IMG/VR virus record: IMGVR_UViG_3300032227_000993
Strand: one strand, 5' to 3'
Origin: a virus
Lineage: Duplodnaviria > Caudoviricetes
Length of the DNA stretch: 64,000 bases
Below, piece after piece: positions 1,765 to 55,827 of the stretch. The position numbers and the translations under genes were made by a program. How positions within the stretch are numbered: position 1 is the stretch's first letter; every line of letters begins with the position of its first letter. The notes under the pieces were generated by a model. That model was given only the letters and a program-made list of their open reading frames with translations, was not told the origin of the DNA and did not search any database.

Positions 1765-1779
1765 TTACAGGAAAAAACA

Positions 1780-2747: not shown

Positions 2748-2768
2748 AAAAGCCCCGCAAGGGGCTTT
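2748..2768 (+). terminator. Rho-independent terminator
   Basis: AAAGCCCC-GCAA-GGGGCTTT hairpin followed by T-rich tract. Confidence 0.8.
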
Positions 2769-2794
2769 ACTTTATCCGCTTTTTGTAGTAAACT
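2766..2794 (+). promoter_or_regulatory. sigma70-type promoter
   Basis: TTTACT-N17-TAAACT; ATG 6 nt after -10. Confidence 0.55.
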
Positions 2795-2800: not shown

Positions 2801-3106
2801 ATGAATACTGAAAACATCGTAGCACACGCTCGTGCCCGTTTTGATCACGCGGCAGCCAAGCGAACACTCAAGGAAAAATATCAAGGAAAGTTGACATTTG
2901 CTCACGCTGGCGGTATGTGGCTGGCAGGTCCTGAACTACTTGCTACCTTGGCTGCCTGTACCGGTCCCACTGCTGTCGTACTTGACTTGTATGATACTCC
3001 TATTAAAATTATCCCCAACGAGTTCCGCGACATTGTAAGATCTCACTGGCAAGAACAAATGAATGCCTGGTTAGTTGAACACGATGAACTTAATAAGAAC
3101 AGATGA
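2801..3106 (+). CDS. hypothetical protein
   Basis: 101-aa ORF, ATGA-coupled to the next gene. Confidence 0.7.
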   Translation: MNTENIVAHARARFDHAAAKRTLKEKYQGKLTFAHAGGMWLAGPELLATLAACTGPTAVVLDLYDTPIKIIPNEFRDIVRSHWQEQMNAWLVEHDELNKNR

Positions 3107-3903
3107 CAACCGGCGTTCTAATTTTTGCTTACAATAACGAGCACATAGATTATCTTGCCATGGCCGCTTGGTCAGCAAAAAATATTCGCCGTCATCTCAA
3201 CTTGCCTGTTGCTGTTGTAACAAATTGTGCTGTACCTAAAGATTATCGCTTTGAACAGGTTATCATAGCACAAACTGATAGTGTGTACAGTCGCAAGTTT
3301 GAAGATATCGAGGAGTCTGTAACCTGGTACAATGCCAATCGCGTTGACGCATACAGTTTATCACCGTGGAGTCAGACATTGGTATTAGATGCTGATTATG
3401 TAGTGGCAAGCAGTGAACTTAGAAAAGTATTAGAAATTAAAAAAAATTTTGTAGCACACAACGCTGCATATGATGTTACTAATCAGCCTAACTTTAGCGA
3501 ACACAATTACTTTGGCCGCAATCGTATGCCCATGTGGTGGGCAACGGTAATGATGTTCCGTCGTAGTCGAGAAGCTGAAATGATATTTAGATGTATGACA
3601 ATGATCAAAGAAAACTGGGATCACTACCGCGGGCTGTATGGAGTAAGCCAGCGTACCTATCGAAATGATTATGCTTTGAGTATTGCCCTTGGCATTGTTG
3701 ATGGCCACACACAGACATATCCTGGTATTCCTTGGAACTTGGCATCTGTATCGCACTCGCATAAACTTTATCAGCTTGACACAGACAAATATCGCGTAGA
3801 GTTTCTAACACAAGATAATAAATCTCGATACATTACACTTGATCAAGATTTCCATGCCATGGGCAAAGCACATTTAGGAGCAATCGTTGACAATCCTCGC
3901 TGA
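3103..3903 (+). CDS. nucleotide-diphospho-sugar transferase-like (GT-A) protein
   Basis: Hydrophobic first strand, VLDADY DxD motif, RNDYALSIAL; paralogous to the next gene. Confidence 0.55.
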   Translation: MTTGVLIFAYNNEHIDYLAMAAWSAKNIRRHLNLPVAVVTNCAVPKDYRFEQVIIAQTDSVYSRKFEDIEESVTWYNANRVDAYSLSPWSQTLVLDADYVVASSELRKVLEIKKNFVAHNAAYDVTNQPNFSEHNYFGRNRMPMWWATVMMFRRSREAEMIFRCMTMIKENWDHYRGLYGVSQRTYRNDYALSIALGIVDGHTQTYPGIPWNLASVSHSHKLYQLDTDKYRVEFLTQDNKSRYITLDQDFHAMGKAHLGAIVDNPR

Positions 3904-4663
3904 ACGCGGTTATCTCATACCTGCCATTGATTCTGAATCTACAGATTATTTGAGTTGTGCTGTACAACTGGCCCAGTCTATTAGACAATGGCATCCTGCG
4001 GCCAACATTGCTGTTGTATCTGTAAAAAGATGTAGTGATCCAGTATTTGATCATGTGATTCCCTTGCCATATGGCGACTTGGGCGGGTATGCCAATGACT
4101 GGCAATGTTTTGCCGCTACCCCTTACCGTGAAACTGTTAAATTAGAAGCTGACATGATTTGTGCCAGTCCCATTGATCATTGGTGGAAATTGTTTGAACA
4201 TCGCGATGTAGTTATTAGCAAGGGCTGTAGAGATTTCTACAATCAACCCGGAACTTCAAGACAATATCGTCAGATATTTGATAATAATAATTTACCTGAT
4301 GTGTACAACGGGATTACTTACTGGAGACGTAGTCAAACTGCCAAAGAATTTTTTGATTTGGTGCGTGATATTTTTGAACGTTGGAACGATTACAAAACTT
4401 TACTAAAATTTCCTGATCAATATCCAACCACCGATGTAGTGTATGCCATGGCAGCAGTTATCATGGGCGAAGAACAAGTGACATTGCCGCAAGGATTTGG
4501 CCCCACTATGGTTCATATGAAAAAAGGTATGATACCTACAAGTTCAGAAAACTGGACCGAGGAATTGGTATGGGAACACACAAAACCTGGACTACGAATC
4601 AACACCGTAGCACAATGGGGACTTGTACACTACCACATTAAAGATTGGAATTTGCATGAATGA
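3887..4663 (+). CDS. GT-A-like glycosyltransferase paralogue
   Basis: KLEADM, VYNGITYW, TDVVYAMA resemble the preceding ORF and GT8-like folds. Confidence 0.55.
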   Translation: MTILAERGYLIPAIDSESTDYLSCAVQLAQSIRQWHPAANIAVVSVKRCSDPVFDHVIPLPYGDLGGYANDWQCFAATPYRETVKLEADMICASPIDHWWKLFEHRDVVISKGCRDFYNQPGTSRQYRQIFDNNNLPDVYNGITYWRRSQTAKEFFDLVRDIFERWNDYKTLLKFPDQYPTTDVVYAMAAVIMGEEQVTLPQGFGPTMVHMKKGMIPTSSENWTEELVWEHTKPGLRINTVAQWGLVHYHIKDWNLHE

Positions 4664-4976
4664 GCAAGAATTCTGGGCCGCACTGGCCCCGCTACCGGAA
4701 CCTACTCCACCTACATATCGTTTGTATTACAACGACTTAGGCGAGCCGTTATTTTACTCTATGGAAGATGTATCAGGTAAGTATATTGAGATCGACCACG
4801 CAACATACAGTAATCCGCCCACTCACGTGAGAGTAATAGACGGAAAGCTCGTAATATTAAAAACAAATTTTGTAACAAAACTAACTCCAGCGCCAACAGG
4901 TACACCGTGCGATCCTTTAGATGTTAGCATAGTAGTAGATGTTACAGAACCTCACACAAACTGGATTTTAAAATGA
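4656..4976 (+). CDS. hypothetical protein
   Basis: Coupled ORF; likely start at MNEQEF (ATG overlapping the previous stop). Confidence 0.65.
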   Translation: MNEQEFWAALAPLPEPTPPTYRLYYNDLGEPLFYSMEDVSGKYIEIDHATYSNPPTHVRVIDGKLVILKTNFVTKLTPAPTGTPCDPLDVSIVVDVTEPHTNWILK

Positions 4977-5896
4977 AAATAGACATAGCAGACTTGGATT
5001 GTATATATCTTTCCTATGACGAACCTAACAAAGAAGAAAACTGGGTAAAAATTAAGAACATGGTGCCTTGGGCTGTACGTGTTGACGGAGTCAAAGGAAG
5101 CGACGCCGCGCACAAGGCCGCCGCCGATGCTGCTTCAACAGATCGTTTTATTTTAATCGACGGCGACAATATCCCCGACGATAAGTTTTTTAATTTAACA
5201 TTGGATTTACAAGAACGCGATGTAGATTGTGTATTCCGTTGGAGAGCCAAAAATTACATCAACGGCCTCATGTACGGCAACGGAGGCTTGAGCTGTTGGA
5301 CCAAAGAATTTATTTACAGCATGAAGACACACGAAAATACAGATGGCTCTGCTGAAAATGATGTGGAATTTTGTTTTTATCCCAACTACATTGCCATGTA
5401 CGATTGTTATTCTACCACTTATCCCAACACTACACCTTTCCAGGCTTGGCGTGCCGGCTTCCGTGAAGGTGTTAAAATGTGTTTGAACAAAGGCACTCGA
5501 CCCACACTACAAGACTTTAAAGATCGTGTTCATCATCGTAATCTTGATCATCTTACTGTCTGGCAAAATGTAGGTCGTGATGTAGAAAATGGAATTTGGG
5601 CCATGCTTGGTGCTCGTATGGGCACCTACATGACAATGATTACTCCTGAGTGGGATTATCGACAAGTACAAAACTTTGACACACTACAAGACTTGTATGC
5701 CAGTATTGACGGACATGACCCTGAAATTATTGCCGCTCGTATCGCTGAAGATTTGTCTACCCAACTTGATTTGCCTATTACTATGATGTATGACAATGAA
5801 AGCAAGTTTTTCAAACACCATTATCGTAGCAACTGGCATAATCAAGGTGTGATGATTCGCGAGTTAGATGTCATCCGTAGTCAAGAAGGCTGGTAA
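4973..5896 (+). CDS. glycosyltransferase family 2-like protein
   Basis: YLSYDEP, LIDGDN DxD motif, YGNGGL, AWRAGFREGVK; similar to the C-terminus of 19711-21900. Confidence 0.6.
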   Translation: MKIDIADLDCIYLSYDEPNKEENWVKIKNMVPWAVRVDGVKGSDAAHKAAADAASTDRFILIDGDNIPDDKFFNLTLDLQERDVDCVFRWRAKNYINGLMYGNGGLSCWTKEFIYSMKTHENTDGSAENDVEFCFYPNYIAMYDCYSTTYPNTTPFQAWRAGFREGVKMCLNKGTRPTLQDFKDRVHHRNLDHLTVWQNVGRDVENGIWAMLGARMGTYMTMITPEWDYRQVQNFDTLQDLYASIDGHDPEIIAARIAEDLSTQLDLPITMMYDNESKFFKHHYRSNWHNQGVMIRELDVIRSQEGW

Positions 5897-7281
5897 TGAC
5901 AAAAAGTGTATTCCTAACAGCTGCTGAACAGATGAAAGAGGACTTAGGTCCTGCTCTTTGTCTTGCTAAGTGGAAACAAGTAAGTCTACACTTACCTACA
6001 GGACTCAACAACTCCTGCTACCATCCGCCACTACACCAAATACCCAAGGAACTGTTAGCTGACAATCCGTCAGCACTACACAATACACCGCACAAAAAAG
6101 AGCAACGCAAAATTATGCTCAAGCAAGAGCGACCAACAGAATGCAGCTATTGTTGGACACAAGAGGACATGGGCAATCTGTCCGACCGTCACTATCGCTC
6201 AGGTGAGCCATGGGCCGCCATGGACTTTGAAGCAATAAAAAACTCTACTGGAGATGAAAATGTTATACCTAGTTATGTGGAAGTTAATTTTAATCATGCT
6301 TGTAACTTATCTTGTAGCTATTGTAGCCCGCAATTTAGTTCATCATGGCAGGCAGAAGTCGATAAGCTGGGAGGTTTTCCTACCTCAACTGTTCATAATG
6401 ATCCTACTCATTTTGTTGGATCTCGTCGTCCTATTCCAGCTAGGGAAGAGAATCCTTACGTAGACGCATTTTGGGCCTGGTGGCCTGAACTGTATCCAAA
6501 ACTAAAACACTTCCGCATGACCGGAGGTGAGCCTATGCTAGACAAAAATACCTATCGAGTATTTGATTACGTGTTGGCACTACCTAAGAACGATTTACAT
6601 TTAAATGTAACCAGTAATTTTTCTGTAGAAGATCAACTATTTGAAAAGTATCTTGGTTATGTCAAGCGTTTATGCGATACACAGATAGAACACTTTATGC
6701 AGTATGTAAGCGTCGACTCAGGTATTCCTAGCCACGCCGAATACATACGCCACGGACTGACATATTCTACCATGATTACTTCTGTACACAAGTATTTAAG
6801 AGAAGTGCCTAATCGTAATAGTCTTACATTTATTATTACAATGAATAATTTAAGCGTATTAGGTTTACGTAAACAGCTAGAAGGAATATTACACTTACGT
6901 CAAACATACAGCAAAACATACCAACGTGTTTGGTTTGATACACCGCTACTACGCCAACCAGCTTGGCAAAGTATCCAACTACTACCACCTTCATACATAG
7001 CCATACTTGAGGAAACTGCTGACTGGATGGAGCAGCATTTAGAAACCGCAGAGGATCCACTACACGGATTTAAGGACTACGAAGTACAGCGCCTACGCCG
7101 TGACATAGATTGGGCCAAGGAAGGCAGTAATCTTGACCCGGACTATGTTAAACTACAAAAAGCAGATTTTTATCGTTTCTTTGCGGAACACGATCGCCGC
7201 CGCAACACAAATTTTCTAAATACCTTTCCTGAGATGGCAGCCTGGTGGACAGAATGTGAATATCATGCCAAACAACTTTGA
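5896..7281 (+). CDS. radical SAM protein with N-terminal twitch/SPASM-like domain
   Basis: N-term CLAKW..SCYH..CSYCW; core CNLSCSYC and TGGEP. Confidence 0.9.
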   Translation: MTKSVFLTAAEQMKEDLGPALCLAKWKQVSLHLPTGLNNSCYHPPLHQIPKELLADNPSALHNTPHKKEQRKIMLKQERPTECSYCWTQEDMGNLSDRHYRSGEPWAAMDFEAIKNSTGDENVIPSYVEVNFNHACNLSCSYCSPQFSSSWQAEVDKLGGFPTSTVHNDPTHFVGSRRPIPAREENPYVDAFWAWWPELYPKLKHFRMTGGEPMLDKNTYRVFDYVLALPKNDLHLNVTSNFSVEDQLFEKYLGYVKRLCDTQIEHFMQYVSVDSGIPSHAEYIRHGLTYSTMITSVHKYLREVPNRNSLTFIITMNNLSVLGLRKQLEGILHLRQTYSKTYQRVWFDTPLLRQPAWQSIQLLPPSYIAILEETADWMEQHLETAEDPLHGFKDYEVQRLRRDIDWAKEGSNLDPDYVKLQKADFYRFFAEHDRRRNTNFLNTFPEMAAWWTECEYHAKQL

Positions 7282-8428
7282 ATTAATACTCGATGTAGAA
7301 TGTGAAGTTTATGCGCAACTCAATCCGTATGCCGACGATGAGTTTCGTGATTTTTCACGACAAGAAATTGTACCTGGTGCGGTGTATGTAATTGGAAGAA
7401 TCCAATCAGCAATACACATTGATAAAATTAAACATCTAGCCGAGTCGGGTCAAGCTATCATTGTGTTTAGTAATCCTGCCGAGGGATCAGAAACTATTGC
7501 CTCGGCAGTGGCAAGGTTAGGCCTGATGCCATTGATTGAAGCTAAAAAAGTTTTATTATTAGGCGGCGGCGATATGGAAGAAAAATATCCTTACTATCGT
7601 TATGATTGTTTTTTAGTAAAAATACTTGATTACCTAAGTAATAAAAAAGCAATGAAGCGCACACATGAGATATTTGAAAAAAAAGATAAACCCTACAAGT
7701 TTTTATTTTTAAATGGCCGTACTAGACCTAATCGCAAGTACTTGTTAGAGAAATTCCGATTAAGTGGATTGTTAGATCAAAGTTTGTGGACCAATTTACA
7801 ATCCAGCTCGGCAGATAACAGATACATTACTCTTACCGATGAAACCACAGGCAAAGATTTAATGTATCCTAGTTTTCCTTACAAGTTATTGCCTAAAGAA
7901 TACGAAATAGCTGAATTTCAAAACAATATCGATACAACATTTCCTAGTGATGTAGGACAATTTATTAAGCCAAACTTGTTTAATAACGAATGGGGAGAAG
8001 TACACCTTAAACCCGAAGTCTACATTGATACTTATTTTAGTTTAGTAACAGAAACAGTATTCACATACCCCTATAGTTTTAGAACAGAGAAAATTGCTAA
8101 ACCATTGGCAATAGGACATCCTTGGATTGTGGCAGCCAATACCGGTTATTATCGTGATATGCGTAACTTAGGATTTAAGACGTTCGGGCATCTTATTGAT
8201 GAAGGTTTTGATGAAATAGTTAACGATCAAGATCGTATTCATCGCATTTGGCAAGTAACCGAGGACTTGTGCAAGCAAGACTTACCTGCTTTCTTAGCCG
8301 CTGCAGAAGAAGTGTGTAAATACAATCAACAACATCTCAAAGAACTACGCAGTAACATTATTCGTGATTTTCCTGAAGAATTTGTACAATTTTTAACAAA
8401 ACATATCAATGAACGATCTAGAATTTAA
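7256..8428 (+). CDS. hypothetical glycosyltransferase-like protein
   Basis: YFSLVTETVF..TEKIAKP..GFKTFGHLIDEGFD motif shared with 18588-19712. Confidence 0.5.
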   Translation: MNIMPNNFELILDVECEVYAQLNPYADDEFRDFSRQEIVPGAVYVIGRIQSAIHIDKIKHLAESGQAIIVFSNPAEGSETIASAVARLGLMPLIEAKKVLLLGGGDMEEKYPYYRYDCFLVKILDYLSNKKAMKRTHEIFEKKDKPYKFLFLNGRTRPNRKYLLEKFRLSGLLDQSLWTNLQSSSADNRYITLTDETTGKDLMYPSFPYKLLPKEYEIAEFQNNIDTTFPSDVGQFIKPNLFNNEWGEVHLKPEVYIDTYFSLVTETVFTYPYSFRTEKIAKPLAIGHPWIVAANTGYYRDMRNLGFKTFGHLIDEGFDEIVNDQDRIHRIWQVTEDLCKQDLPAFLAAAEEVCKYNQQHLKELRSNIIRDFPEEFVQFLTKHINERSRI

Positions 8429-9752
8429 AAAACAAGTATTAGACAACAAGTCTGCAAGTTTCTGTGCCGCTAAATGGTACAATGCTACCATATGGCTGGG
8501 CTCGGGCATGAGTACTTCTTGTCATCACCCGCCGGCTCACAAGATTGACACCGCAGAACTTGCAATCAATCCCAAGGCAATACATAATACTCAACAGAAA
8601 AAAGATGATCGGCGACTAATGTTGGCCGGCGAACGTCCTCGTGGATGCGAGTACTGCTGGAAGATAGAGGACATGGGAGTAGATGCCATATCCGACCGTG
8701 TTTACAAAAGTAAAATTTATCCTATTGAGGCATTAGATGAAGCATACACCACACCATACCAAGATGACGTTGACCTCAAAACCCTTGAAATCGCATTTGA
8801 CCGCACTTGTCAGTTTGCCTGTAGTTACTGTAATCCAGCGTTCTCTAGTACTTGGGTTAAAGACATTAGGAATAATGGTGCTTATACCAATCTTGTCAGT
8901 GACGGCCGTAATCACTTTACTCACGCTCATGATAGCAGTCAGCTATACACCTTTGGAGAAACTAATCCTTACACTGAAGCGTTCTTCAAGTGGTGGGAGT
9001 CGGACCTCCACAAGACGCTCCAAGAATTAAGAATTACTGGTGGCGAGCCAACCATGAGTGGCGAGTTATGGAAGTTAATTGATTGGTTTAGAGAAAACAA
9101 AGGAAAATCACAAACCAAGCTGGCCATTAACAGCAACCTTGGCATGGATAGACTAAAGCTATTAGACTTTGCTGAACGCATACGCGATTTACCGCACGTA
9201 GAAATTTATACCTCTAACGAAGCCACATTTACTCAGGCTGAATACATTCGTGACGGTTTAGATTACAATTTATGGATGCACAACGCACAAGAATTATTAG
9301 AAAGCGGCAGTATCAAAGCATTACACGTGATGTGTACTATCAATGCGTTGAGTCTTTGTTCATTGACTGAATTTTTAGACCATTTAATTGAAATGAAGGA
9401 AATGTATGGCAAAGAACGTGTTAGTTTTACACTAAATATTTTACGCTTTCCAAGTTTTCAATCACCGTTGGTATTATCTAAAACATTACGCAAAACATAC
9501 GAGTTAGATTTGAGCGTATGGATTGGTCGTAATCGTGATAATCCTTTGATACACGAACACGAATTGAATCACGCATTGCGTCTACGTGATTATCTTGCTA
9601 TGGTTGAGACTCCACATTCTGAAGCGTTTGAAATGCCAAAATTATTAAATGATTTCAAACAGTTCTACACACAATACGACGAACGTAGAAATAAAAATTT
9701 TACAACAACATTTCCCTTATTAGCAGATTGGTACAATGACATACGAGTATAA
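8409..9752 (+). CDS. radical SAM protein, N-terminal twitch type
   Basis: FCAAKW..SCHH..CEYCW; CQFACSYC; TGGEP. Confidence 0.9.
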   Translation: MNDLEFKKQVLDNKSASFCAAKWYNATIWLGSGMSTSCHHPPAHKIDTAELAINPKAIHNTQQKKDDRRLMLAGERPRGCEYCWKIEDMGVDAISDRVYKSKIYPIEALDEAYTTPYQDDVDLKTLEIAFDRTCQFACSYCNPAFSSTWVKDIRNNGAYTNLVSDGRNHFTHAHDSSQLYTFGETNPYTEAFFKWWESDLHKTLQELRITGGEPTMSGELWKLIDWFRENKGKSQTKLAINSNLGMDRLKLLDFAERIRDLPHVEIYTSNEATFTQAEYIRDGLDYNLWMHNAQELLESGSIKALHVMCTINALSLCSLTEFLDHLIEMKEMYGKERVSFTLNILRFPSFQSPLVLSKTLRKTYELDLSVWIGRNRDNPLIHEHELNHALRLRDYLAMVETPHSEAFEMPKLLNDFKQFYTQYDERRNKNFTTTFPLLADWYNDIRV

Positions 9753-10992
9753 CTCAACAGATCTAGTTAGGCCAACTGAGCTTACAGAACGTGAAGAATT
9801 TTTATTAAAAGATTCTAAAACATTTTGTATCTATCCTTGGATACATTTACACGCTTACCCAACCGGCGAAGCATATCCGTGCTGTCATGCAGAAATGGCA
9901 TACCCTGTGGGCAACTGCCGCCATAAAACACTTGAGGAAATTTATTACGATGCTCCCATGCGTGAATTGCGTAAAGATATGCTTGCTGAAAGAATGAATC
10001 CAGCCTGCGGACGTTGTTACGAGCAAGAAGAGTCTGGGTTCTTCTCAGGACGCAAGAGTGCCAACAAGCATCATGGTCATCATATTAAACGCATAGATGA
10101 TGGCAAGTTCCAGATGAGCTACTGGGATGTTCGCTTCAGTAATCTATGTAATCTAAGCTGCCGCTCGTGCGGTCATATCTTTAGTAGTAGCTGGTATCAA
10201 GACCAAGCGGCTCTAGCTGGGCCCAGCTGGACAGAAAACAATAAAGCACTCAATATTGCTGGGCGCAACAAGGACGATATGTGGGAACAATTACTGCCGC
10301 ATATTGACTATGTAGAACAGATTTACTTTGCCGGTGGCGAGCCCCTAATGATGGAGGAACACTACCGCATACTTGACGAACTTGAACGGCGCGGTCGTTT
10401 TGATGTGCGCTTAATCTACAACACCAACTTTACACAAACTAAACTTAAAGATCGTGTGGTGTTTGACTACTGGCGCAAGTTTGACTCTGTGGCAGTAGGC
10501 GCAAGTCTTGACGCTATGGGTCCACGTGCTGAATACATACGCAAAGGCACAGACTGGGCAACAGTAGAATACAACCGCGAACAGATGATGGCAATTTGTC
10601 CCAAAGTAGATTTTTACATTAGTCCTACACTTAGCATTATGAACGCACTACACTTGCCTAGCTTTCATAAAACCTGGGTAGAAAAAGGTTACATCAAGCC
10701 ACAAGACTTAAATGTAAACATACTACAAGACCCAGCCTACTTGCGTATTGACATTGCTCCTATCAAGTACAAACAACGTATTCGGCAGGCATACATAGAG
10801 CATCTAGAGTGGTTACGTCCATTGGATCCGCTTAACCGTGCTACTGTAGGATTTGAAAGTGCTATCAATTTTATGATGGCTACTGACAATACAGCATTGA
10901 TCCCCCAATTTTGGAGCAAGACGCTAGAGCTTGATAAAATTAGAGGCGAGCAATTACTCCAAGTTATTCCTGAACTAGAGGCGCTGTCTTGA
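9736..10992 (+). CDS. radical SAM protein, N-terminal twitch type
   Basis: FCIYPW..PCCH..CGRC; CNLSCRSC; AGGEP. Confidence 0.9.
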   Translation: MTYEYNSTDLVRPTELTEREEFLLKDSKTFCIYPWIHLHAYPTGEAYPCCHAEMAYPVGNCRHKTLEEIYYDAPMRELRKDMLAERMNPACGRCYEQEESGFFSGRKSANKHHGHHIKRIDDGKFQMSYWDVRFSNLCNLSCRSCGHIFSSSWYQDQAALAGPSWTENNKALNIAGRNKDDMWEQLLPHIDYVEQIYFAGGEPLMMEEHYRILDELERRGRFDVRLIYNTNFTQTKLKDRVVFDYWRKFDSVAVGASLDAMGPRAEYIRKGTDWATVEYNREQMMAICPKVDFYISPTLSIMNALHLPSFHKTWVEKGYIKPQDLNVNILQDPAYLRIDIAPIKYKQRIRQAYIEHLEWLRPLDPLNRATVGFESAINFMMATDNTALIPQFWSKTLELDKIRGEQLLQVIPELEALS

Positions 10993-12197
10993 ACTTACCA
11001 CATGACAAATTTTGTGTCCTACCATGGGTTAGCCTTGAGACATCGCCCATAGGAACTGTACGTCCTTGCTGTCTGGCCGATCACGAGATTACCGATAATG
11101 CTGGTGAAAAGTTTAACCTTAGTACAGCAACCTTTTCGGCAATACAAAATAGTCACGATATGCGTCGACTACGTCGGCAGTTTATCGACGGAGAGCAACC
11201 TGAAACTTGCCGTAAATGTTGGAACGAAGAACAATCTGGTAGGACGTCTAAGCGTATGCATACTCTTGACCGACTTAAACACGTGATTCCACCCCAGGAC
11301 TGGACTATAGATGCTAAACCTTTGATGTTCCTTGATCTTAAACTGGGTAATATTTGTAACCTCAAGTGCCGTATCTGTGGATCGTGGAGCTCTAGTACCT
11401 ATGCCACTGAGGAGATGAAGCATACAGGTAATCAAAAAGGCAGCTTCCATCATCAAATGTTACGCCAAGGATCTTGGCCGCGCGAAAACAAAGTATTTTG
11501 GAATGAAATAGATGAGATATCATCGCAAATACGCTATTTAGAATTTACTGGCGGTGAGCCTTTTATGATACAAGAGCATTTTGATATGCTACAAGGATTG
11601 GTAGAACGTGGTATCGCACCCAATATTGAAATACACTACAATACCAATGGTACACAATGGCCTAAAGACGCTGACGAAATTTGGCGACATTTTAAAACTG
11701 TAGAAATTGCTTTTAGTATCGATGATGTAGGTGCCCGTTTTGAATATCAACGCAGTAATGCCAAGTGGCACGAGGTCTGCGAAAATATTGAAAAGTTTAG
11801 ACAACTTCGTATTCGATATCCCAACATACAGCTTCAAGTTTGTTCCACAGTAAATGTGTTTAATGTGTTTTATGTCGACGAATTAGCCAATTGGATTGAT
11901 AAACAAGAGTTTGATTTTGTCTATTGGAATATGATGCATGATGCTCCGTATTTTAGTATTGCTAACCTACCTAAGGCGGCCAAACAAACCATTACCAACA
12001 GATTGATCACCGCCGACGTGTCCAACAAACATAAACAAGAGTTTATAAACATCATGGACTTTATGAATAATGGCAATCAAGATTTAAGCAAACAAATGAT
12101 TGCTGAAATTCGCAAAGTAGATCTACGTCGCAATGAAAATCTTGCTCAAGTAGAACCAGAATTTGCCACCCTTATTGGCTATGAAGTTACCTCCTAA
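10989..12197 (+). CDS. radical SAM protein, N-terminal twitch type
   Basis: FCVLPW..PCCL..CRKCW; CNLKCRIC; TGGEP. Confidence 0.9.
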   Translation: MNLPHDKFCVLPWVSLETSPIGTVRPCCLADHEITDNAGEKFNLSTATFSAIQNSHDMRRLRRQFIDGEQPETCRKCWNEEQSGRTSKRMHTLDRLKHVIPPQDWTIDAKPLMFLDLKLGNICNLKCRICGSWSSSTYATEEMKHTGNQKGSFHHQMLRQGSWPRENKVFWNEIDEISSQIRYLEFTGGEPFMIQEHFDMLQGLVERGIAPNIEIHYNTNGTQWPKDADEIWRHFKTVEIAFSIDDVGARFEYQRSNAKWHEVCENIEKFRQLRIRYPNIQLQVCSTVNVFNVFYVDELANWIDKQEFDFVYWNMMHDAPYFSIANLPKAAKQTITNRLITADVSNKHKQEFINIMDFMNNGNQDLSKQMIAEIRKVDLRRNENLAQVEPEFATLIGYEVTS

Positions 12198-13470
12198 GAA
12201 TCTTTGCCTTGCTCCTTGGACGCACACTTATCTCAGTCCACAAACTGAGCGACGTATGTGCTGTGCCTCACGCGAGCCAGCGCAAAACTTTGAACAATAC
12301 ATAGATACAAAATCGGGAACAGGCCAGTACATTCCCTTGACTCTTGAACAACATTGGAACGGAGAGCATATGAAAAGTGTGCGCCGACGCATGATGGCCG
12401 GTGAAACACTACCTGAGTGTGCTGTATGTAACGAGCAACTGTTAAACACAGATGTTTATCGCAGTTATTTTAACCGTATGTTTGGCCACAAGCAAGACGA
12501 AATATGGCTGGCCACAGATAAAGACGGTTCTACCACTATGAAGCCAATAAGTTGGGACTATCGTTTCTCTAACCTATGTAACTTTAAATGTCGTATGTGT
12601 GGAGATATGCTGTCATCGGCGTGGGAATCAGAACAACGCCAGCATCGTATGATTGACTGGGATAATCCTAAAAATAACTGGATGAAATTAGAAGTACGTG
12701 CGGAGATAAGCAAGTTTCAAGACACTCAAATAGAAGAAGAATTTGCTCAGGCTGTCAAAGAACACCGTGTAGAAGAAGTTTACTGGGTAGGTGGCGAACC
12801 CTTAATGTATGAACAGCATTGGCGGTACATGAAACAAATAGTAGATCAAGGCGACGGAGATCGCGTGTATGCTAGATACAACACTAATCTTAGCAGAGTG
12901 GATTACAAAGGCATCAGTCTTTACGATGATATTTTGTGTCATCTTCGTGATTACCAGATATGTGCTAGCCTCGATGGAACAGGCGCCATTGGCGAATACA
13001 TCAGAACTGGACTTGACTATGCTGTGTGGCGAGATAATTTTGCCCGTGGAGTAGCAACAGCAAAAAATCGCAGACAATGGCGGATTGATTTTACCCTTAC
13101 TTTACCAGGGCTATTTGAAGTTGAAAACATCCAGGCCCTTGCTAGAGAATTTGATGTAGAAATACTTGCCAAAGTAATCTTTTCGTTCTCACCGGATATC
13201 ATCCTAAGTCCATTGGCACTACCACGCAAGCTACTCAACAGAACTGTTGACCGCCTGTTGCCCATGACCACAGGTGCTATGTATGATGTATTAGTTCAGC
13301 TAAAAAACCGGCCTACCTTTGAGGAGCAATGGCCCGACACCTTTGCCAAACAGCTTGCTTGGGGCAAGCATCGTGTGTTACAATTAGAGTCGATACGTGG
13401 CGGCATGACCCTTGCGGATATTTTACAACAGGATCCAGAAATTTATGAGTGGTACAACCAAATATCTTGA
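12181..13470 (+). CDS. radical SAM protein, N-terminal twitch type
   Basis: LCLAPW..MCCA..CAVC; CNFKCRMC; VGGEP; likely start MKLPP. Confidence 0.9.
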   Translation: MKLPPKNLCLAPWTHTYLSPQTERRMCCASREPAQNFEQYIDTKSGTGQYIPLTLEQHWNGEHMKSVRRRMMAGETLPECAVCNEQLLNTDVYRSYFNRMFGHKQDEIWLATDKDGSTTMKPISWDYRFSNLCNFKCRMCGDMLSSAWESEQRQHRMIDWDNPKNNWMKLEVRAEISKFQDTQIEEEFAQAVKEHRVEEVYWVGGEPLMYEQHWRYMKQIVDQGDGDRVYARYNTNLSRVDYKGISLYDDILCHLRDYQICASLDGTGAIGEYIRTGLDYAVWRDNFARGVATAKNRRQWRIDFTLTLPGLFEVENIQALAREFDVEILAKVIFSFSPDIILSPLALPRKLLNRTVDRLLPMTTGAMYDVLVQLKNRPTFEEQWPDTFAKQLAWGKHRVLQLESIRGGMTLADILQQDPEIYEWYNQIS

Positions 13471-14500
13471 CCGAATAGAGATACTATTGTGGGACAAGGA
13501 TGAAAATCCTACTCATGTTTATGTTGACGTGTTTGATAATTCGCTTAGTCGTAAGTGGTTATCGGCATTAAATCAGTTATTAGTAAACAATTATCATTTA
13601 GAGAAGAATTATTGCTTCTTGGGCTTCCCTGGCGCTGACCGCAATGGCAAACTTATTATCGATCAGATAAACAAATCTATTGAATTTATTAATAACTCAG
13701 ACATTGGCTACACTATCGACGATCATTTTGCGTTGTCGGAAGTATTAGACAGCGAATCGCGTATTAATCATGACAGATTTAATCACTTACATAGATACTT
13801 TGAAGATTTACAAGGAGTAAGCGGCAATATTAGTCCTTACTACTGGAAAGCAGACAATGCTACACGATGGCATATTAGACAACTCAATCTTTTGTGCCAT
13901 GAGTTTGAATCTTGGGCACTAAGTTGGCGTAAAAAACACACAGCACCCGAGTGGGTTCGTCCTAGCCAGTTGATGTGTTGGCTTAATGCTCCACGTTTTG
14001 TATTAGATGACGAAGATTATGAATTATTTGGCATTGAAACTATTAATCGTTCCATGGGTGGAGTATTTGTAGGAGTAAACAAAGCGGTAGGCAAACATCA
14101 TTGGGAAGTATTCCACGATGAAGGTAGAGATAGTCGTGTTAGTGAATTAACCACTACAACATTAAAACCACAAACAGAAGCTGCTGGCGATTTTGACATT
14201 GAGTGGGGTGTTGATCCTAGTAATCGTGAGTGGCAGATAAATGTATTAAAAGATTTTAGAGAATGGTTGATTGTCAACGGCTTTGACCCCGACGATAAAA
14301 GTTTAACCATCGGTCATCCGCAAGTAGGGCAGGTAGATTTGGCAGCAAGTTTTGGAACTGACGACTACAACACTATTTGGGACAAACTTAATAATCAGTT
14401 GAATGTAAAAAGCATTAAAACTAGCAAAGCAAGTGCTAGTTACACGTACAATTGGTCTGATGTAGACTACATGGAGCAACAAATAAAATGTCTTGGTTAA
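13445..14500 (+). CDS. hypothetical protein
   Basis: Long coupled ORF, His-rich (HLHRYFE, LCHEFE, GKHHWE); no family recognised. Confidence 0.7.
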   Translation: MSGTTKYLDRIEILLWDKDENPTHVYVDVFDNSLSRKWLSALNQLLVNNYHLEKNYCFLGFPGADRNGKLIIDQINKSIEFINNSDIGYTIDDHFALSEVLDSESRINHDRFNHLHRYFEDLQGVSGNISPYYWKADNATRWHIRQLNLLCHEFESWALSWRKKHTAPEWVRPSQLMCWLNAPRFVLDDEDYELFGIETINRSMGGVFVGVNKAVGKHHWEVFHDEGRDSRVSELTTTTLKPQTEAAGDFDIEWGVDPSNREWQINVLKDFREWLIVNGFDPDDKSLTIGHPQVGQVDLAASFGTDDYNTIWDKLNNQLNVKSIKTSKASASYTYNWSDVDYMEQQIKCLG

Positions 14501-14589
14501 AAAATATTTACAAACGCATTGTACTTGAGATTAAGTATCGTCGCAAGTTAAAAGAACTGCGCAAGAAGGATCCTTTTATTTACAAATGA
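14488..14589 (+). CDS. small basic protein (33 aa, MSWLKNIY...KDPFIYK)
   Basis: Not in ORF track; fills the gap and its TGA overlaps the carbamoyltransferase ATG. Confidence 0.6.
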   Translation: MSWLKNIYKRIVLEIKYRRKLKELRKKDPFIYK

Positions 14590-16073
14590 AACATTATCTA
14601 GGTATTTCAGCTGGCTATCATGATGCCGCCGCTACTGTGATCAATAGTAACGGCGATATTCTCTTTGCTGGTCATAGTGAACGCTACAGTAAATTAAAAA
14701 ACGATAAAAATTTATGCGATAACTTACTATCTGAATTATGTGAGTGGCAATATGATACCGTGGCATTTTACGAACGTCCGTGGATGCATAATTTACAACA
14801 GTTGTATTCAGGACAACACAATGTAGGGCCATGGACCCGGCGTGGCACATTAAACAAACACCTAGGTACTTGGTATCAGACTCCAGCCAAGCACGAAGTC
14901 TGTTATCCTCATCACCTGTGTCACGCTGCCGCCGGATTTCAGACAAGTGTATTTGATCGAGCCACTGTAGTGGTAATAGATGCCATTGGCGAGTTTGATA
15001 CAATTTCAATTTATGGAGCAAAGTATGATAAAAAAGGTAAGGCAGTTTATAAAAAACTTTGGGGACAAAAATATCCACACTCAATCGGACTCCTTTATAG
15101 TGCAATTACTCAGCGCATTGGCTTACACCCGTTAGACGAAGAATATATTACCATGGGTATGAGCGCCTACGGCGATAAAACAGCGGCCAGTGTTATTATG
15201 GGTAATCATTTGATAGAAAATGCTAAAGAAATAAAATTTAAGCAAAATTTACACGCTGGTGTAGATAAAGATTTTATGTTTTTCACTACAAACGCAGATT
15301 TGGCCGCAGGAGTGCAAGCTGTTGCAGAAGAATTGATAAGTAATGTTATGATTAAAGCTCGTGAATTTGGCTGGAGCGATAATCTGGTGTATCAAGGCGG
15401 TGTTGCCTTAAACTGTTTAGCCAATAGAAATCTCGGTCGTTACTTTGAAAATATTTGGATCATGCCTTGCCCTGGCGATGCTGGCTCTAGTCTTGGAGCG
15501 GCTGCTCTTGCCTACGGCAAGCGCATCAACTTCACCAACGCTTATCTTGGTCACAACATTAGCGGAAAATATCCTGTTAACGCCTGTCTCGATCATTTAC
15601 TTACAGATAGAATCGTTGGAGTTGCTTCCGGTCGTGCTGAATTTGGGCCCCGAGCACTTGGGAACAGAAGTCTACTCGCAGACCCAAGAGGACCTGATAT
15701 AAAGGACCGTGTTAATGAAATCAAACGCAGACAAAAGTTTAGACCATTCGCGCCAGTCGTATTGGCAGAGCTCGCTGATGAATTTTTTGATATGCCTGCT
15801 GGCTTTCGTAATAGTCCTTACATGCAGTCAGTCGCTAAGTGTAAGCATCCTGAATTGTATCCTGCTATTGTTCATCACGACGGTACTAGTAGAGTACAGA
15901 CTGTACCAGATAACGGTTCGGGCATTAGGCAGTTGCTTGAAAAATGGTATGTCCTGACAGGATGTCCTATGCTGTTAAACACTAGTCTTAATATCCGCGG
16001 CGAACCCATGGTCAATGATCGAGCAGATGCTGATCGTTTTGAAAAATTATACAATGTGAAAGTGTGTTCGTGA
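14586..16073 (+). CDS. carbamoyltransferase (NodU/CmcH family)
   Basis: YHDAAA, HHLCHAA, VIDAIGE, GGVALNC, EFGPRALGNRS, RQKFRPFAP, LNTSLN. Confidence 0.92.
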   Translation: MKHYLGISAGYHDAAATVINSNGDILFAGHSERYSKLKNDKNLCDNLLSELCEWQYDTVAFYERPWMHNLQQLYSGQHNVGPWTRRGTLNKHLGTWYQTPAKHEVCYPHHLCHAAAGFQTSVFDRATVVVIDAIGEFDTISIYGAKYDKKGKAVYKKLWGQKYPHSIGLLYSAITQRIGLHPLDEEYITMGMSAYGDKTAASVIMGNHLIENAKEIKFKQNLHAGVDKDFMFFTTNADLAAGVQAVAEELISNVMIKAREFGWSDNLVYQGGVALNCLANRNLGRYFENIWIMPCPGDAGSSLGAAALAYGKRINFTNAYLGHNISGKYPVNACLDHLLTDRIVGVASGRAEFGPRALGNRSLLADPRGPDIKDRVNEIKRRQKFRPFAPVVLAELADEFFDMPAGFRNSPYMQSVAKCKHPELYPAIVHHDGTSRVQTVPDNGSGIRQLLEKWYVLTGCPMLLNTSLNIRGEPMVNDRADADRFEKLYNVKVCS

Positions 16074-17341
16074 ACGAATTTCCTATTAAAACAAAAACAG
16101 GATGCATTCTTAAGTGGTCCTGGAGCACAATATTTTTAAAACAAGGCGAAACAAATAGTTGTCATCGTTGTGCGTTATTGCCTATTGATCCTGATAACTT
16201 TGCTAACTTTCACAATCTTCCTGGGAAAGTAGAAGCCCGTGAAACAATGTTACGTGGAGAATGGCCTCAGGCAGGTTGCCAGAGTTGCCAGCGCATTGAA
16301 GAGGCCGGCGGAAAAAGTTATCGTATGAATCAATTTGATACTGGTAGAAACAATGGAGTAATTCCTATTGAATTGTTTGATGATCCTACTGCCACCGAAG
16401 TAGTTCCTACTATTTTAGAAATTTATTTTAATAATGTATGCAATATGGCTTGTGTGTACTGCGATGAAAGATTAAGCAGCAAGTGGGAAGAAGAAAATCG
16501 CAAATTTGGATCATACAGCATTGGCAACACACCGTTGATCAATAAATATGTAAATACTCCGCATTATGATCAAATGTTATCAGAATTCTGGAGATACTTG
16601 GAAAATTATGGACATCGTTTACGAGTATTTCAGATACTTGGAGGCGAGCCGTTCTTCCAAAAAGAGTTTGATGATGCCTTAGATTTTTGGGAAGCTCACC
16701 CTAATCCGCAGTTATCTATTGTTATTGTTACTAACTTAAAAGTTCCACCCAAAAAGTTCAAAGCCTATCTTGAAAGATTTAAACGTATGATTGCCGCCGG
16801 CGCCTGCAGAGAGTTTCACATCGCAGCCAGCCTTGATGCCTGGGGACCAGCAGAAGAATATGTTCGCCAAGGTTTAGATTTAGAGGAGTGGAGAGAAAAT
16901 TTTGAATATGCGATTACGCAACCACTGATAAAACTTGGAATAAACGCTACAATTTCATCACTCACTATCAAAGGATTTGCTGAATTATTATGTAATATTA
17001 GCAAGTGGAACAAAATTAGACAGGAATACACGTCCAATATTCAGATGAAAAATATTAAATTAAGTTTCCAAAATTTAACACACCCAACAGTCATGCGTGG
17101 GTCATGGTTTGGCCCCGGAGTGTTTGATGATGATTTTGCTGCGGCGTTGGCGGCCATGCCTGAAGGTGATCCTGAATACGATCATGCCAAAGAATACTTG
17201 TTGGGTATTAGTAAAGAGTGGTCCAACGGTGCTAAAAATGTTGAACGTATCAATGAATTAAAGGTGTATTTAACAGAATTAGATAGACGTAGAAATACCA
17301 ACTGGAAAGAAACATTCCCGTGGTTAAACAAAGAATGGTAA
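16064..17341 (+). CDS. radical SAM protein, N-terminal twitch type (tandem copy 1)
   Basis: CILKW..SCHR..CQSC; CNMACVYC; LGGEP. Confidence 0.9.
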   Translation: MFVNEFPIKTKTGCILKWSWSTIFLKQGETNSCHRCALLPIDPDNFANFHNLPGKVEARETMLRGEWPQAGCQSCQRIEEAGGKSYRMNQFDTGRNNGVIPIELFDDPTATEVVPTILEIYFNNVCNMACVYCDERLSSKWEEENRKFGSYSIGNTPLINKYVNTPHYDQMLSEFWRYLENYGHRLRVFQILGGEPFFQKEFDDALDFWEAHPNPQLSIVIVTNLKVPPKKFKAYLERFKRMIAAGACREFHIAASLDAWGPAEEYVRQGLDLEEWRENFEYAITQPLIKLGINATISSLTIKGFAELLCNISKWNKIRQEYTSNIQMKNIKLSFQNLTHPTVMRGSWFGPGVFDDDFAAALAAMPEGDPEYDHAKEYLLGISKEWSNGAKNVERINELKVYLTELDRRRNTNWKETFPWLNKEW

Positions 17342-17342
17342 G

Positions 17343-18608
17343 ATGAAAAAAATATTTCCTATTAAAACAGAAACAGCGTGTCTATTAAAATGGGCGTGGA
17401 GCACTATCTATTTAGGCCAAGGCAAAACCAGTTCGTGCCATCGGGTAGATCAATTTCCTATTGACCCTAATAATTTTGCTAATTTCCACAATCAGCCTGA
17501 AAAAATTGCCGCTCGCAAAACAATGCTTAAAGGAGAGTGGCCGCAGGCAGGTTGTCAGTACTGTCAAAAAATTGAAGAAGCAGGCGGCATGAGTGATAGA
17601 CAATACCAGCTTCACGAATCAAAAAATATGGATCATATTCCTCAAGAATTGTTTGATGATCCTACCGCCACCGAAGTAGTTCCTACGATTTTAGAAATTT
17701 ATTTCAACAATGTATGTAATATGGCTTGTGTTTACTGTGGAAGTCATTTTAGCAGCAAGTGGGAAGAAGAAAATAACAAATTTGGAGTTTTTCAAAAAGG
17801 AGCAGTTGAATTTGGCTGGAACAAACCACAGAATCCTGACTATGAAAAAATGCTTGCTGACTTCTGGAAGTATCTAGAAGAAAAAGATCGTTACAAAGCA
17901 ATACGCTACTATCAAATACTTGGTGGCGAGCCTTTCTTCCAAAAAGAGTTTGACACCAGCATTGAGTTCTGGGAAACCCATCCTAACCCTGATGTAGCAT
18001 TTAACATTATTACAAATTTAAAAGTACCACCCAAGAAGTTTAAAGCATACATAGACCGCTTTGGCAAGATGGTAGAAGAAGGCAAACTGTCACGCTTACA
18101 AATCACAGGAAGTTTAGACGCTTGGGGCCCACAAGAAGAATATGTACGCTGGGGACTAGACTTGAAAGAGTGGGAAGAAAATTTTACTTACTTGTTAGAT
18201 AAACCTTGGATTGTTATGGTAGTTAACATGGCTATTACTGGATTAACTATCAAGACTTTACCTGAGCTTATTGAAAAAATCAAAGAATGGAATTTGCGCA
18301 GGCCCGATGGCAATAAAATTTATCTATCGTTTATGACTGCAACTAATCCACTTGAACTAGTACCGGACATTTTTGGAAAGGGCGTGTTTGATGAAGATTT
18401 TAAACGCTTGATGGATGTGTGGCCTACAGATACGCCTGATGATTTAAGTGCTAAAGAACACATGGCAGGCATTATTAAACAAATTGAAAATGCTCCGCAG
18501 AAACCACTACAAATTGAAAATTTAAAAACTTATCTAACAGAATTAGACCGTCGCCGTGGCACACATTGGCCTACGTTATTTCCTTGGCTAGATAAAAACT
18601 GGATCTAG
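17343..18608 (+). CDS. radical SAM protein, N-terminal twitch type (tandem copy 2)
   Basis: CLLKW..SCHR..CQYC; CNMACVYC; near-identical blocks with 16064-17341. Confidence 0.9.
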   Translation: MKKIFPIKTETACLLKWAWSTIYLGQGKTSSCHRVDQFPIDPNNFANFHNQPEKIAARKTMLKGEWPQAGCQYCQKIEEAGGMSDRQYQLHESKNMDHIPQELFDDPTATEVVPTILEIYFNNVCNMACVYCGSHFSSKWEEENNKFGVFQKGAVEFGWNKPQNPDYEKMLADFWKYLEEKDRYKAIRYYQILGGEPFFQKEFDTSIEFWETHPNPDVAFNIITNLKVPPKKFKAYIDRFGKMVEEGKLSRLQITGSLDAWGPQEEYVRWGLDLKEWEENFTYLLDKPWIVMVVNMAITGLTIKTLPELIEKIKEWNLRRPDGNKIYLSFMTATNPLELVPDIFGKGVFDEDFKRLMDVWPTDTPDDLSAKEHMAGIIKQIENAPQKPLQIENLKTYLTELDRRRGTHWPTLFPWLDKNWI

Positions 18609-44803: not shown

Positions 44804-44892
44804 TTGACTCCTAGTTCTACGCCGCAACCATTGGCCCACACCCCAATTTGATTAGGAAGTATTGTTAAGAGTGTATATATTAAATGTTTCAT
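44791..44892 (-). CDS. putative leader peptide (33 aa)
   Basis: MKHLIYTLLTILPNQIGVWANGCGVELGVKAFE between a consensus promoter and a terminator. Confidence 0.6.
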   Translation of the reverse strand: MKHLIYTLLTILPNQIGVWANGCGVELGVKAFE

Positions 44893-44901
44893 AATAGTGT
44901 T

Positions 44902-44930
44902 ATTGTACTAGGTTATTTATCTTTTGTCAA
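44902..44930 (-). promoter_or_regulatory. sigma70 promoter
   Basis: TTGACA-N17-TACAAT. Confidence 0.8.
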
Positions 44931-55821: not shown

Positions 55822-55827
55822 ACAAGT

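Follow-up and report, generated by a model that had tools for sequence, protein, structure and literature searches.

Two groups of described phage gene clusters are among the systems closest to the locus analyzed here. In pelagimyophages and cyanomyophages, a hypervariable tail fiber region that encompasses GT8-type glycosyltransferases along with 'radical SAM cassettes' has been interpreted as altering the host O-chain; the radical S-adenosylmethionine (SAM) enzymes themselves were not analyzed in that study (Zaragoza-Solas et al. 2020, PMC7029224). Jumbo cyanophages encode glycosyltransferase clusters as well as carbamoyltransferase-containing clusters for the tailoring of sugars or amino acids (Iyer et al. 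2021, PMC7824862). Here we describe an operon (positions 2801-18608, plus strand) in a 64,000-nucleotide stretch of DNA from a virus of the class Caudoviricetes (IMG/VR record IMGVR_UViG_3300032227_000993; hereinafter, the window) that combines seven radical SAM enzymes carrying an N-terminal twitch domain with a carbamoyltransferase and putative glycosyltransferases. With a probability of about 0.5, this operon encodes a soluble, cytoplasmic pathway that would assemble a glycan or glycoconjugate and then tailor it by radical chemistry, the substrates, products and target of the pathway being those that we infer below.

The operon is filled by 15 plus-strand open reading frames (ORFs) that abut or overlap their neighbors by 1 to 59 nucleotides; the overlaps could be shorter in reality because each ORF was taken to start at the first possible start codon. 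The sole intergenic gap, of 85 nucleotides (14501-14585), lies ahead of the carbamoyltransferase gene. The encoded proteins comprise seven radical SAM enzymes, one carbamoyltransferase, two paralogous GT-A-like proteins, one faintly GT2-like protein and four proteins of unknown function. For comparison, we fetched 80 related IMG/VR loci, on contigs of up to 353 kb, from freshwater jumbo phages with genomes of approximately 345-360 kb. The order of a 13-gene core, u101-gtA1-gtA2-u117-gtA3-rS1-u390-rS2-rS3-rS4-rS5-u362-CT (rS, radical SAM enzyme; CT, carbamoyltransferase), is retained in all 80 loci as far as the contigs reach, with amino acid identities between 34% and 87%, and the core is located directly 3' of tail fiber-like genes wherever these are covered. 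The two remaining genes, rS6 and rS7, are accessory: orthologs of rS7 (60-70% identity) were found in 5 of the 80 loci, no gene in these loci was assigned to rS6, and additional radical SAM genes of other kinds are present elsewhere among the loci. One of the operon enzymes has more than 7,300 homologs among metagenomic proteins, with the top 120 at least 81% identical, and a DNA search of 50,697 phage records with the entire operon yielded no match. An earlier description made from the nucleotide sequence alone (the sequence-only reading) had already presented the locus as a biosynthetic unit of the phage, with a carbamoyltransferase and enzymes that handle sugars, beside tail fiber genes and had recognized no pathway of such a composition; the conservation of the unit bears out the former claim and, in accord with the latter, we found no characterized pathway of this kind.

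Marine contigs from bins labeled 'Legionellales' (L086) and 'Rickettsiales' (L158/L162) also contain related cassettes, with gtA1/2, gtA3 and radical SAM genes, u362 being present in L086 only. Four additional contigs that are filed under bacterial metagenome-assembled genomes, namely, L084 and L085 (Haliscomenobacter), L087 and L088, contain the phage cassette as well, rS3 being 72% identical in L084/L085. All these contigs (L084-L088 and L158/L162) are probably phage DNA that was binned with bacteria, and the Haliscomenobacter bin could be a weak hint at the host.

All seven radical SAM proteins score above the curated cut-off of 170 bits for the NCBIfam family NF033640 (N_Twi_rSAM, "twitch domain-containing radical SAM protein"), in the range of 221.7 to 384.1 bits. 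These are, on the plus strand, the five core enzymes rS1 (5896-7281; 299 bits), rS2 (8409-9752; 290.8 bits), rS3 (9736-10992; 384.1 bits), rS4 (10989-12197; 356.9 bits) and rS5 (12163-13470; 279.4 bits), and the accessory rS6 (16064-17341; 221.7 bits) and rS7 (17343-18608; 241.4 bits). In each of the seven, four invariant N-terminal cysteines are followed by the CxxxCxxC and GGEP motifs, and in three, the N-terminal portion is recognized by the Pfam SPASM profile (rS3, residues 31-95, E = 1.2e-9; rS4, residues 9-78; rS5, residues 15-90). The CxxxCxxC and GGEP motifs are invariant not only among the paralogs but also in 57-63 orthologs per group, and the seven cluster cysteines are retained in the same 57-63 distinct orthologs per group (in the case of rS1, in 61-62 of 62). 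These enzymes are not recent tandem duplicates: apart from rS6 and rS7, which are 56% identical, the paralogs share only 19-33% identity. In a quick phylogenetic tree, the closest partner of each of rS1, rS2, rS3 and rS5 is a copy from the marine contig L086, and that of rS4 is a copy from L088. Such old divergence, together with the pairing with marine copies and the retention of the Fe-S cluster cysteines, is the pattern expected of distinct, non-redundant steps maintained by selection. The identification of seven twitch-first radical SAM enzymes in the sequence-only reading is thus corroborated by the NF033640 scores and by the location of the cysteines ahead of CxxxCxxC; the layout, which that reading contrasted with the usual C-terminal position of the domain, is not new as such, given that it is already represented by a curated NCBIfam subfamily.

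BtrN and NeoN are twitch-type radical SAM enzymes of aminoglycoside pathways. The operon enzymes resemble these proteins in that they are predicted to combine a radical SAM core with one auxiliary [4Fe-4S] cluster bound by four cysteines in a truncated SPASM domain, and the spacing of the twitch cysteines in rS1 (19, 42 and 3 residues) is similar to what we take to be the spacing in BtrN. However, the twitch domain is N-terminal in the operon proteins and C-terminal in BtrN and NeoN, and a profile search of PDB sequences with the radical SAM proteins retrieved only generic cores (8vpo, BlsE, viperin and MoaA), with BtrN and NeoN absent. The connection to BtrN and NeoN drawn in the sequence-only reading accordingly amounts to a mechanistic analogy, not membership in the same group. 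By this analogy, the auxiliary four-cysteine cluster suggests a BtrN-like role as an electron acceptor, which would lead to oxidation or epimerization.

The carbamoyltransferase (14586-16073, plus strand) contains both domains of the NodU/CmcH/TobZ family, with scores of 114.5 bits for Carbam_trans_N and 163.2 bits for Carbam_trans_C (Pfam cut-offs of 24 and 27 bits, respectively), in full agreement with the earlier annotation; its score against the NodU equivalog NF041651 is 128.8 bits compared with a cut-off of 1000. Judging by these profiles, it is a member of the family and not NodU itself. The protein is approximately 32% identical to the Nol-like enzymes of cyanophages, with higher identity to two other viral homologs, each of which is linked to an N-twitch radical SAM gene. 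In the cultured Ralstonia jumbo phage RsoM2USA, an rS2 ortholog (gene _202, 51% identity) is located three genes from the carbamoyltransferase _199 (44% identity), and in the marine virus AG-345-D19, the carbamoyltransferase gene (48% identity) is directly followed by an N-twitch radical SAM gene. Hence this gene pair is linked in three separate phage lineages, counting that of the window.

On the minus strand, converging on the operon and separated from it by two genes of unknown function, are genes for a DegT/PseC/WecE-type sugar aminotransferase (21869-22945; Pfam DegT_DnrJ_EryC1, 186.8 bits) and an SDR-type NDP (nucleoside diphosphate)-sugar 4,6-dehydratase/epimerase (22899-23873; Pfam Epimerase, 130.1 bits). 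The best NCBIfam matches of the former are 4-amino-4,6-dideoxyhexose transaminases, all below the equivalog cut-offs, and that of the latter is dTDP-glucose 4,6-dehydratase (107.7 bits, also below the cut-off). The convergent aminotransferase/epimerase module that had been proposed from the sequence is therefore present.

Pathways of aminoglycoside and nucleoside antibiotics employ twitch radical SAM enzymes, DegT aminotransferases, glycosyltransferases and TobZ/CmcH-type carbamoyltransferases. The enzyme set of the operon recalls such pathways, so that the product might be a diffusible small molecule, such as an aminoglycoside- or nucleoside-like carbamoylated pseudo-oligosaccharide acting as an antibiotic, a signal or an anti-defense compound; the apparent solubility of all the proteins would fit, and a secondary-metabolite interpretation has been put forward for the cyanophage carbamoyltransferase clusters (PMC7824862). 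We nevertheless consider a diffusible product highly improbable, given that neither a scaffold-forming enzyme (2-deoxy-scyllo-inosose synthase or a nucleoside-forming enzyme) nor an exporter or a self-resistance gene was found, and that the conserved site beside the tail fiber genes would be left without explanation.

The product of gtA1 (3103-3903, plus strand) is a putative GT-A-fold (GT8/glycogenin-like) glycosyltransferase, in which D96 and D98 of the DxD metal/nucleotide-sugar motif are invariant among 11 orthologs. A structural model built from these orthologs (pLDDT 64, medium confidence) was compared with the PDB using Foldseek: the matches listed are all GT-A proteins (glycogenin, GlyE, MNT2 and alpha-1,3-galactosyltransferase), the best one being glycogenin (E = 2.4e-4), with TM-scores of just 0.34-0.43. 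The adjacent gtA2 (3887-4663, plus strand) encodes a paralog of gtA1 (hhalign probability 98.7%, E = 1.6e-16) with an invariant E87-A88-D89 where the DxD motif aligns, and matches phrog_1903, a group of unknown function; neither protein matched any Pfam family, GT8 included, at E-values up to 10. The gtA3 protein (4973-5896, plus strand) is possibly a divergent GT2-like transferase: at its invariant D63-G64-D65 motif, faint matches to Pfam GT2 families were detected (E = 0.044-0.048; 14.0-14.2 bits against cut-offs of 23.3-27), and in a set of 36 sequences that included about 13 gtA3 orthologs and three u729-type proteins (see below) with a gtA3-like stretch, Glyco_tranf_2_3 was matched by five, with a best E-value of 0.019. 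The count of three GT-A-like genes in the sequence-only reading receives only moderate support, gtA1 and gtA2 being paralogs with a medium-confidence model that matches GT-A proteins, and gtA3 having faint GT2 scores below the Pfam cut-offs.

The glycan interpretation, under which the product would be a carbamoylated glycoconjugate with an amino sugar, derives from the fixed combination in which the radical SAM enzymes occur with GT-A-like proteins, with a carbamoyltransferase and with a pair of enzymes for aminosugar supply; from the recurrence of the link between radical SAM and carbamoyltransferase genes in three phage lineages; from the location of many bacterial relatives in polysaccharide contexts; and from the published phage cassettes of glycosyltransferases with radical SAM enzymes (PMC7029224) or with carbamoyltransferases (PMC7824862). 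The presence of a phage-encoded SAM synthetase (53141-54241, minus strand; all three Pfam domains) is also counted in its favor. Under this scheme, the downstream dehydratase and DegT aminotransferase would supply an NDP-4-amino-4,6-dideoxyhexose; gtA1, gtA2, perhaps gtA3, and the u390 and u374 proteins (see below) would add sugars from NDP-sugars; the carbamoyltransferase would O-carbamoylate a hydroxyl group; and each of the five core N-twitch enzymes would perform one distinct C-H activation. In each such step, SAM would be cleaved at the CxxxCxxC cluster to yield a 5'-deoxyadenosyl radical, with the fully cysteine-ligated auxiliary twitch cluster acting as an electron sink or relay, and the outcome would be the oxidation, epimerization or rearrangement of a sugar carbon.

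No transmembrane-like segment was detected in any operon protein, the maximum 19-residue hydropathy being 1.57, and all of these proteins look soluble. With priming transferases, flippases and exporters likewise absent from the operon, the pathway can be expected to act in the cytoplasm, which favors a phage-made acceptor. We therefore lean toward acceptors such as the fiber proteins encoded upstream, ahead of host envelope precursors; a supply to host intermediates on the inner side of the membrane is another possibility. The two fiber-like proteins encoded just upstream of the operon (577-2727, plus strand) have a very high content of Thr, Ser, Ala and Gly, and the second of these contains no Cys, many N-x-T/S motifs and T-rich runs. 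Speculatively, such Thr/Ser-rich proteins would be suitable targets for glycosylation.

The operon is delimited by conserved expression signals. The tail fiber-like gene just before it ends at 2727 and is followed by a terminator-like hairpin (2749-2768, plus strand), read directly from the sequence, with an 8-bp G+C-rich stem, a GCAA loop and a T-rich tail extending to 2784. This hairpin is not in the output of a simple terminator scan; it is found, with compensatory changes in the stem, at the same place in nearly all of the 36 relatives that were read, which upholds the terminator that had been noted after the tail fiber gene. A putative sigma70-like promoter consists of TTTACT (2766-2771), a 17-nucleotide spacer and TAAACT (2789-2794, plus strand), its 5' part overlapping the 3' side of the hairpin. 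The -10 element of the window, TAAACT, is degenerate and ends 6 nucleotides before the ATG at 2801; in most relatives, the element is TGTATAAT or TGTACAAT, and in the 36 loci it is always located 6-7 nucleotides ahead of the ATG of the first gene, so that neither a leader nor a Shine-Dalgarno sequence would fit. The segment 2749-2803 is a compact conserved unit of a terminator hairpin and a sigma70-like promoter, implying a leaderless mRNA: the operon transcript probably starts at the AUG itself. We infer that the operon is a transcription unit of its own that would be read by a host-type polymerase. The possibility that TGTATAAT marks a window-wide class of promoters was considered and rejected because it is not enriched (88 matches against 108 expected). 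The fiber gene at 577 instead has a late-type element, ATAAATA, and a ribosome-binding site, GGAG, ahead of it.

The promoter bears on a further alternative, namely, that the pathway remodels the host envelope (O-antigen, capsule or lipopolysaccharide core) in the course of infection and so blocks superinfection or masks receptors. This is the published interpretation of glycosyltransferase-rich tail fiber regions of pelagimyophages and cyanophages (PMC7029224, PMC7824862), and it would be compatible with early expression from a sigma70-type promoter read by the host polymerase as well as with the presence of bacterial relatives in polysaccharide loci of the ABC-transporter type. However, membrane proteins, priming transferases, flippases, polymerases and exporters are all absent from the operon, and the strictly conserved 13-gene core differs from the polymorphic, serotype-like cassettes that would be expected to underlie surface variation; envelope remodeling appears unlikely.

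Several operon proteins have resisted annotation. The u101 gene (2801-3106, plus strand), the first in the operon, encodes a 101-amino acid protein with orthologs that are 49-80% identical in 46 ORFs of related loci and with no match in Pfam or PHROGs. The u117 protein (4623-4976, plus strand) is small and Pro/Thr-rich, shows no matches and is the least conserved in the core (34-60% identity among orthologs). The u390 protein (7256-8428, plus strand) and its paralog u374 (18588-19712, minus strand; BLASTP E = 4e-14), the gene for which converges on the operon and occurs in many relatives, though not in every one, have in common an invariant E-T...T-E-K motif that resembles what we take to be the motif of GT10 enzymes, making u390 a possible GT10-like (fucosyltransferase-like) transferase. 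A lead to GT10 obtained from the Atlas scores just 0.79, and the viral structural look-alikes of u390 are fused to epimerase or methyltransferase domains. No Pfam match, including Glyco_transf_10, was found for any of 20 members of this family, nor was there a match among PDB sequences, and when the u390/u374 alignment was used as a profile against 5.8 billion proteins, only unannotated phage orthologs were retrieved. The conserved u362 protein (13412-14500, plus strand) was modeled confidently (pLDDT 76) as a beta-barrel similar to that of cyclophilins, with a helical insertion; the model shows middling similarity (VIA-align Z of 5-7) to about 30 cyclophilin-like chains, no PDB match in Foldseek and nothing in an Atlas look-up, and the relatives of u362 in the AlphaFold database are all uncharacterized and unnamed. 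Next to u374, u729 (19711-21900, plus strand) encodes a 729-amino acid protein without Pfam or NCBIfam matches that includes a stretch resembling gtA3 (28% identity over 26% of the query with the gtA3-type proteins of L158/L162, by BLASTP). Nothing meaningful emerged when alignments of the orthologs of u362, u390/u374, gtA3, gtA1 and gtA2 were used as profiles against the sequences in the PDB.

The N-twitch family extends far beyond the operon. Each of four near-complete related genomes (G001-G004) encodes between 5 and 17 copies above the NF033640 cut-off, and the window contains nine in total, the two outside the operon (34958-36097 and 48247-49479, both on the minus strand) being assigned by their four twitch cysteines and the CxxxCxxC and GGEP motifs; a weaker radical SAM-like ORF is present at 44884-45975 (plus strand). 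Dispersed copies in the relatives (L164-L177) occupy syntenic slots among core genes for the terminase, RecA/UvsX-like protein, helicase and ClpP, and in one case (L164), the copy is inserted between Metallophos (SbcD-like) and AAA_23/SMC (SbcC-like) genes, a layout reminiscent of the inserted accessory genes of T4-like phages. In a representative library of 1.8 billion proteins, the family comprises 6,297 clusters at 50% identity (E <= 1e-30). Many of the best matches (P0243-P0270) are proteins of 800-1,200 amino acids with two or three complete N-twitch units in tandem. In a check of such long proteins for 'Rosetta stone' fusions, the additional parts proved to be another radical SAM core, a domain without any match and a stretch with faint similarity to FkbM methyltransferases (E = 0.0015), none of which is informative. 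Vibrio phage K566, a 255-kb jumbo phage from a cultured collection, encodes four clustered N-twitch radical SAM enzymes with hypothetical genes (L082; record positions 161548-168284), and a gene for a PagP-like lipid A acyltransferase is found a few kilobases from this cluster.

The bacterial members of the family are encoded in diverse contexts. In polysaccharide-type loci, mainly of Bacteroidota and some Proteobacteria, 1-3 N-twitch copies are accompanied by genes for GT4 and GT2 glycosyltransferases, PhyH dioxygenases, DegT aminotransferases, AsnB-like proteins and ABC transporters. In a clade of Hyphomicrobiales, the enzyme is linked to PqqD, an HprK-like kinase, GT2 and a nucleotidyltransferase; in Reichenbachiella, its gene lies between those for DUF3108 and YaaA; and in Paenibacillus, it adjoins ketoacyl synthases and an SDR protein in a fatty-acid-synthase-like arrangement. 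In the quick tree, rS1/rS2/rS6/rS7 and rS5 form phage-only lineages, and rS3 and rS4 fall near genes of Bdellovibrionota in unclear contexts, so that function cannot be transferred by phylogeny from the bacterial contexts, an approach that we therefore rejected.

These contexts also bear on the view that the radical SAM enzymes act on proteins or peptides, for instance, through epimerization, thioether formation or C-C cross-linking in the fiber proteins or in u101/u117, the product being then glycosylated and carbamoylated, in a maturation resembling that of peptides that are synthesized ribosomally and then modified after translation (RiPPs) or a maturation of virion proteins. Radical SAM enzymes with SPASM/twitch domains are typically peptide maturases, and in one bacterial clade, N_Twi enzymes are encoded together with the peptide-recognition element PqqD, an HprK-like kinase, a GT2 enzyme and an ABC exporter. 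The location of dispersed phage copies next to protein-coding core genes rather than sugar genes, the two small conserved operon proteins without an assigned role and the Thr/Ser-rich fiber genes upstream point in the same direction. However, no PqqD or RRE (RiPP recognition element) domain was detected in any operon protein at E-values up to 10, u101 and u117, each of at least 100 amino acids, contain no Cys-rich or repetitive core, and the paralogs in the window belong outside the PqqD-associated clade. No short RiPP precursor was identified, small unannotated ORFs not having been searched exhaustively. On balance, we regard such a maturation pathway as distinctly unlikely. A broader scenario, which we view as conjectural and rather improbable, is that the N-twitch enzymes constitute a large and as yet unexplored toolbox, amplified in these phages, for oxygen-independent radical editing of macromolecules: those of the operon would introduce several distinct modifications into a carbamoylated fiber glycan (epimerized, oxidized or cross-linked residues), and the dispersed copies would modify other phage components. 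If this is the case, it would represent a chemistry of virion or protein maturation that has not been described for any virus.

Several observations weigh against the interpretation of the operon as a glycan pathway. The operon has a sigma70-like promoter and the adjoining fiber gene one of the late type, a difference that weakens the case for co-expression of the operon with virion genes. The operon lacks a sugar nucleotidyltransferase, a recognized acceptor, a polyprenyl-phosphate priming transferase, a flippase and a polymerase. The glycosyltransferase assignments are weak, being derived from a medium-confidence model with low TM-scores and from Pfam scores under the thresholds, and four core proteins (u101, u117, u390 and u362) are left without explanation. 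A survey of the literature yielded no characterized member of NF033640 and no characterization of an N-terminal SPASM/twitch enzyme or of glycan chemistry by a phage radical SAM enzyme, and sugar chemistry is thus assumed, not transferred. Moreover, other phage copies adjoin genes for the terminase, UvsX/RecA, helicase, SbcCD-like proteins and ClpP and not sugar genes; the bacterial contexts are mixed, with a peptide-type one in Hyphomicrobiales (PqqD/HprK) and ketoacyl synthases in Paenibacillus; and the window paralogs lie outside the polysaccharide-context clade in the quick tree. With family members spread over polysaccharide, RiPP-like and lipid loci and phage core regions, the proposal of the sequence-only reading that these enzymes act on sugars is not substantiated.

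Among four related complete genomes, a SAM synthetase together with a PNP/MTAN-like gene was found in one, the genome with the most N-twitch copies (17), and no FMN_red-type reductase was found in any. A second sugar module, distinct from the operon, occupies 54464-61186 (minus strand) and combines enzymes of sugar and 7-deazaguanine metabolism: a QueE-like radical SAM enzyme, a phosphoribosyltransferase, an SDR epimerase, a truncated UDP-glucose/GDP-mannose dehydrogenase, a sugar C-methyltransferase and a PTPS/QueD-like protein. An ordinary FAD-dependent thymidylate synthase, ThyX, is encoded at 24354-25016. This heavy nucleotide chemistry (ThyX, and queD, queE-like and phosphoribosyltransferase genes of the second module) would be in line with hypermodification of the phage DNA as a defense against restriction, for example, by glycosylation and carbamoylation of bases, and so would the solubility of phage DNA glycosyltransferases and a sigma70-type, presumably early, promoter suited to pre-replicative modification. 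However, no base hydroxymethylase, DNA kinase, transglycosylase, DNA glycosyltransferase or DNA-binding domain was detected among the operon proteins using Pfam, NCBIfam and PHROGs, the 7-deazaguanine genes form a separate cluster with sugar enzymes of its own, and the bacterial relatives of the radical SAM enzymes are found outside DNA-modification contexts, making DNA modification extremely unlikely.

Whatever the product, the operon appears worth experimental attention. NF033640 is a large family for which we found no known reaction, and the operon offers enzymologists an ordered, co-evolved set for the discovery of new radical chemistry. The phage clade is very abundant in lake metagenomes and has retained five to seven diverged copies, which are arranged in a constant order with sugar enzymes. 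RsoM2USA, a cultured phage with a minimal version consisting of a radical SAM enzyme and a carbamoyltransferase, provides an entry point for genetics. Should the product decorate virions or the surface of the host, the pathway would bear on host range and superinfection in dominant freshwater phages.

Comparison with the previously described systems delineates what is known and what is new. The domain order, the NF033640 family and, in general terms, the concept of glycan cassettes of phages close to fiber genes are already known: NF033640 catalogs the domain order, and similar cassettes have been reported (PMC7029224, PMC7824862), which weakens the novelty of the locus to that extent. As in the pelagimyophages and cyanomyophages, sugar-transferase and radical SAM genes are located in the tail fiber region of a T4-like phage, and the marine 'Rickettsiales' contigs L158/L162 likewise carry gtA1/2, gtA3 and an N-twitch radical SAM gene; in those phages, however, the region is hypervariable, whereas here the order of the 13-gene core is fixed in 80 loci. 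Compared to the jumbo cyanophage clusters (PMC7824862), the common features are phage-borne paralogous glycosyltransferases, NDP-sugar enzymes and CmcH-type carbamoyltransferases, including the Nol-like ones; the difference is that the cyanophages tailor with 2-oxoglutarate-Fe(II) and cupin oxygenases, a halogenase and methylases, and the operon with oxygen-independent radical SAM enzymes. The uncharacterized Bacteroidota loci (L093-L095, L098 and L103) similarly contain 1-3 N-twitch enzymes among glycosyltransferases and sugar enzymes, but these belong to another clade and are accompanied by ABC transporters and dioxygenases that are absent from the operon. Compared to NF033640, which is a catalog entry only, the operon is an ordered phage array of anciently diverged paralogs. 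What is new, then, is this array of N-twitch radical SAM enzymes in the place of the oxygenases of the cyanophage clusters, along with the genome-wide expansion, in an abundant clade of freshwater phages, of a family for which we found no biochemical knowledge.

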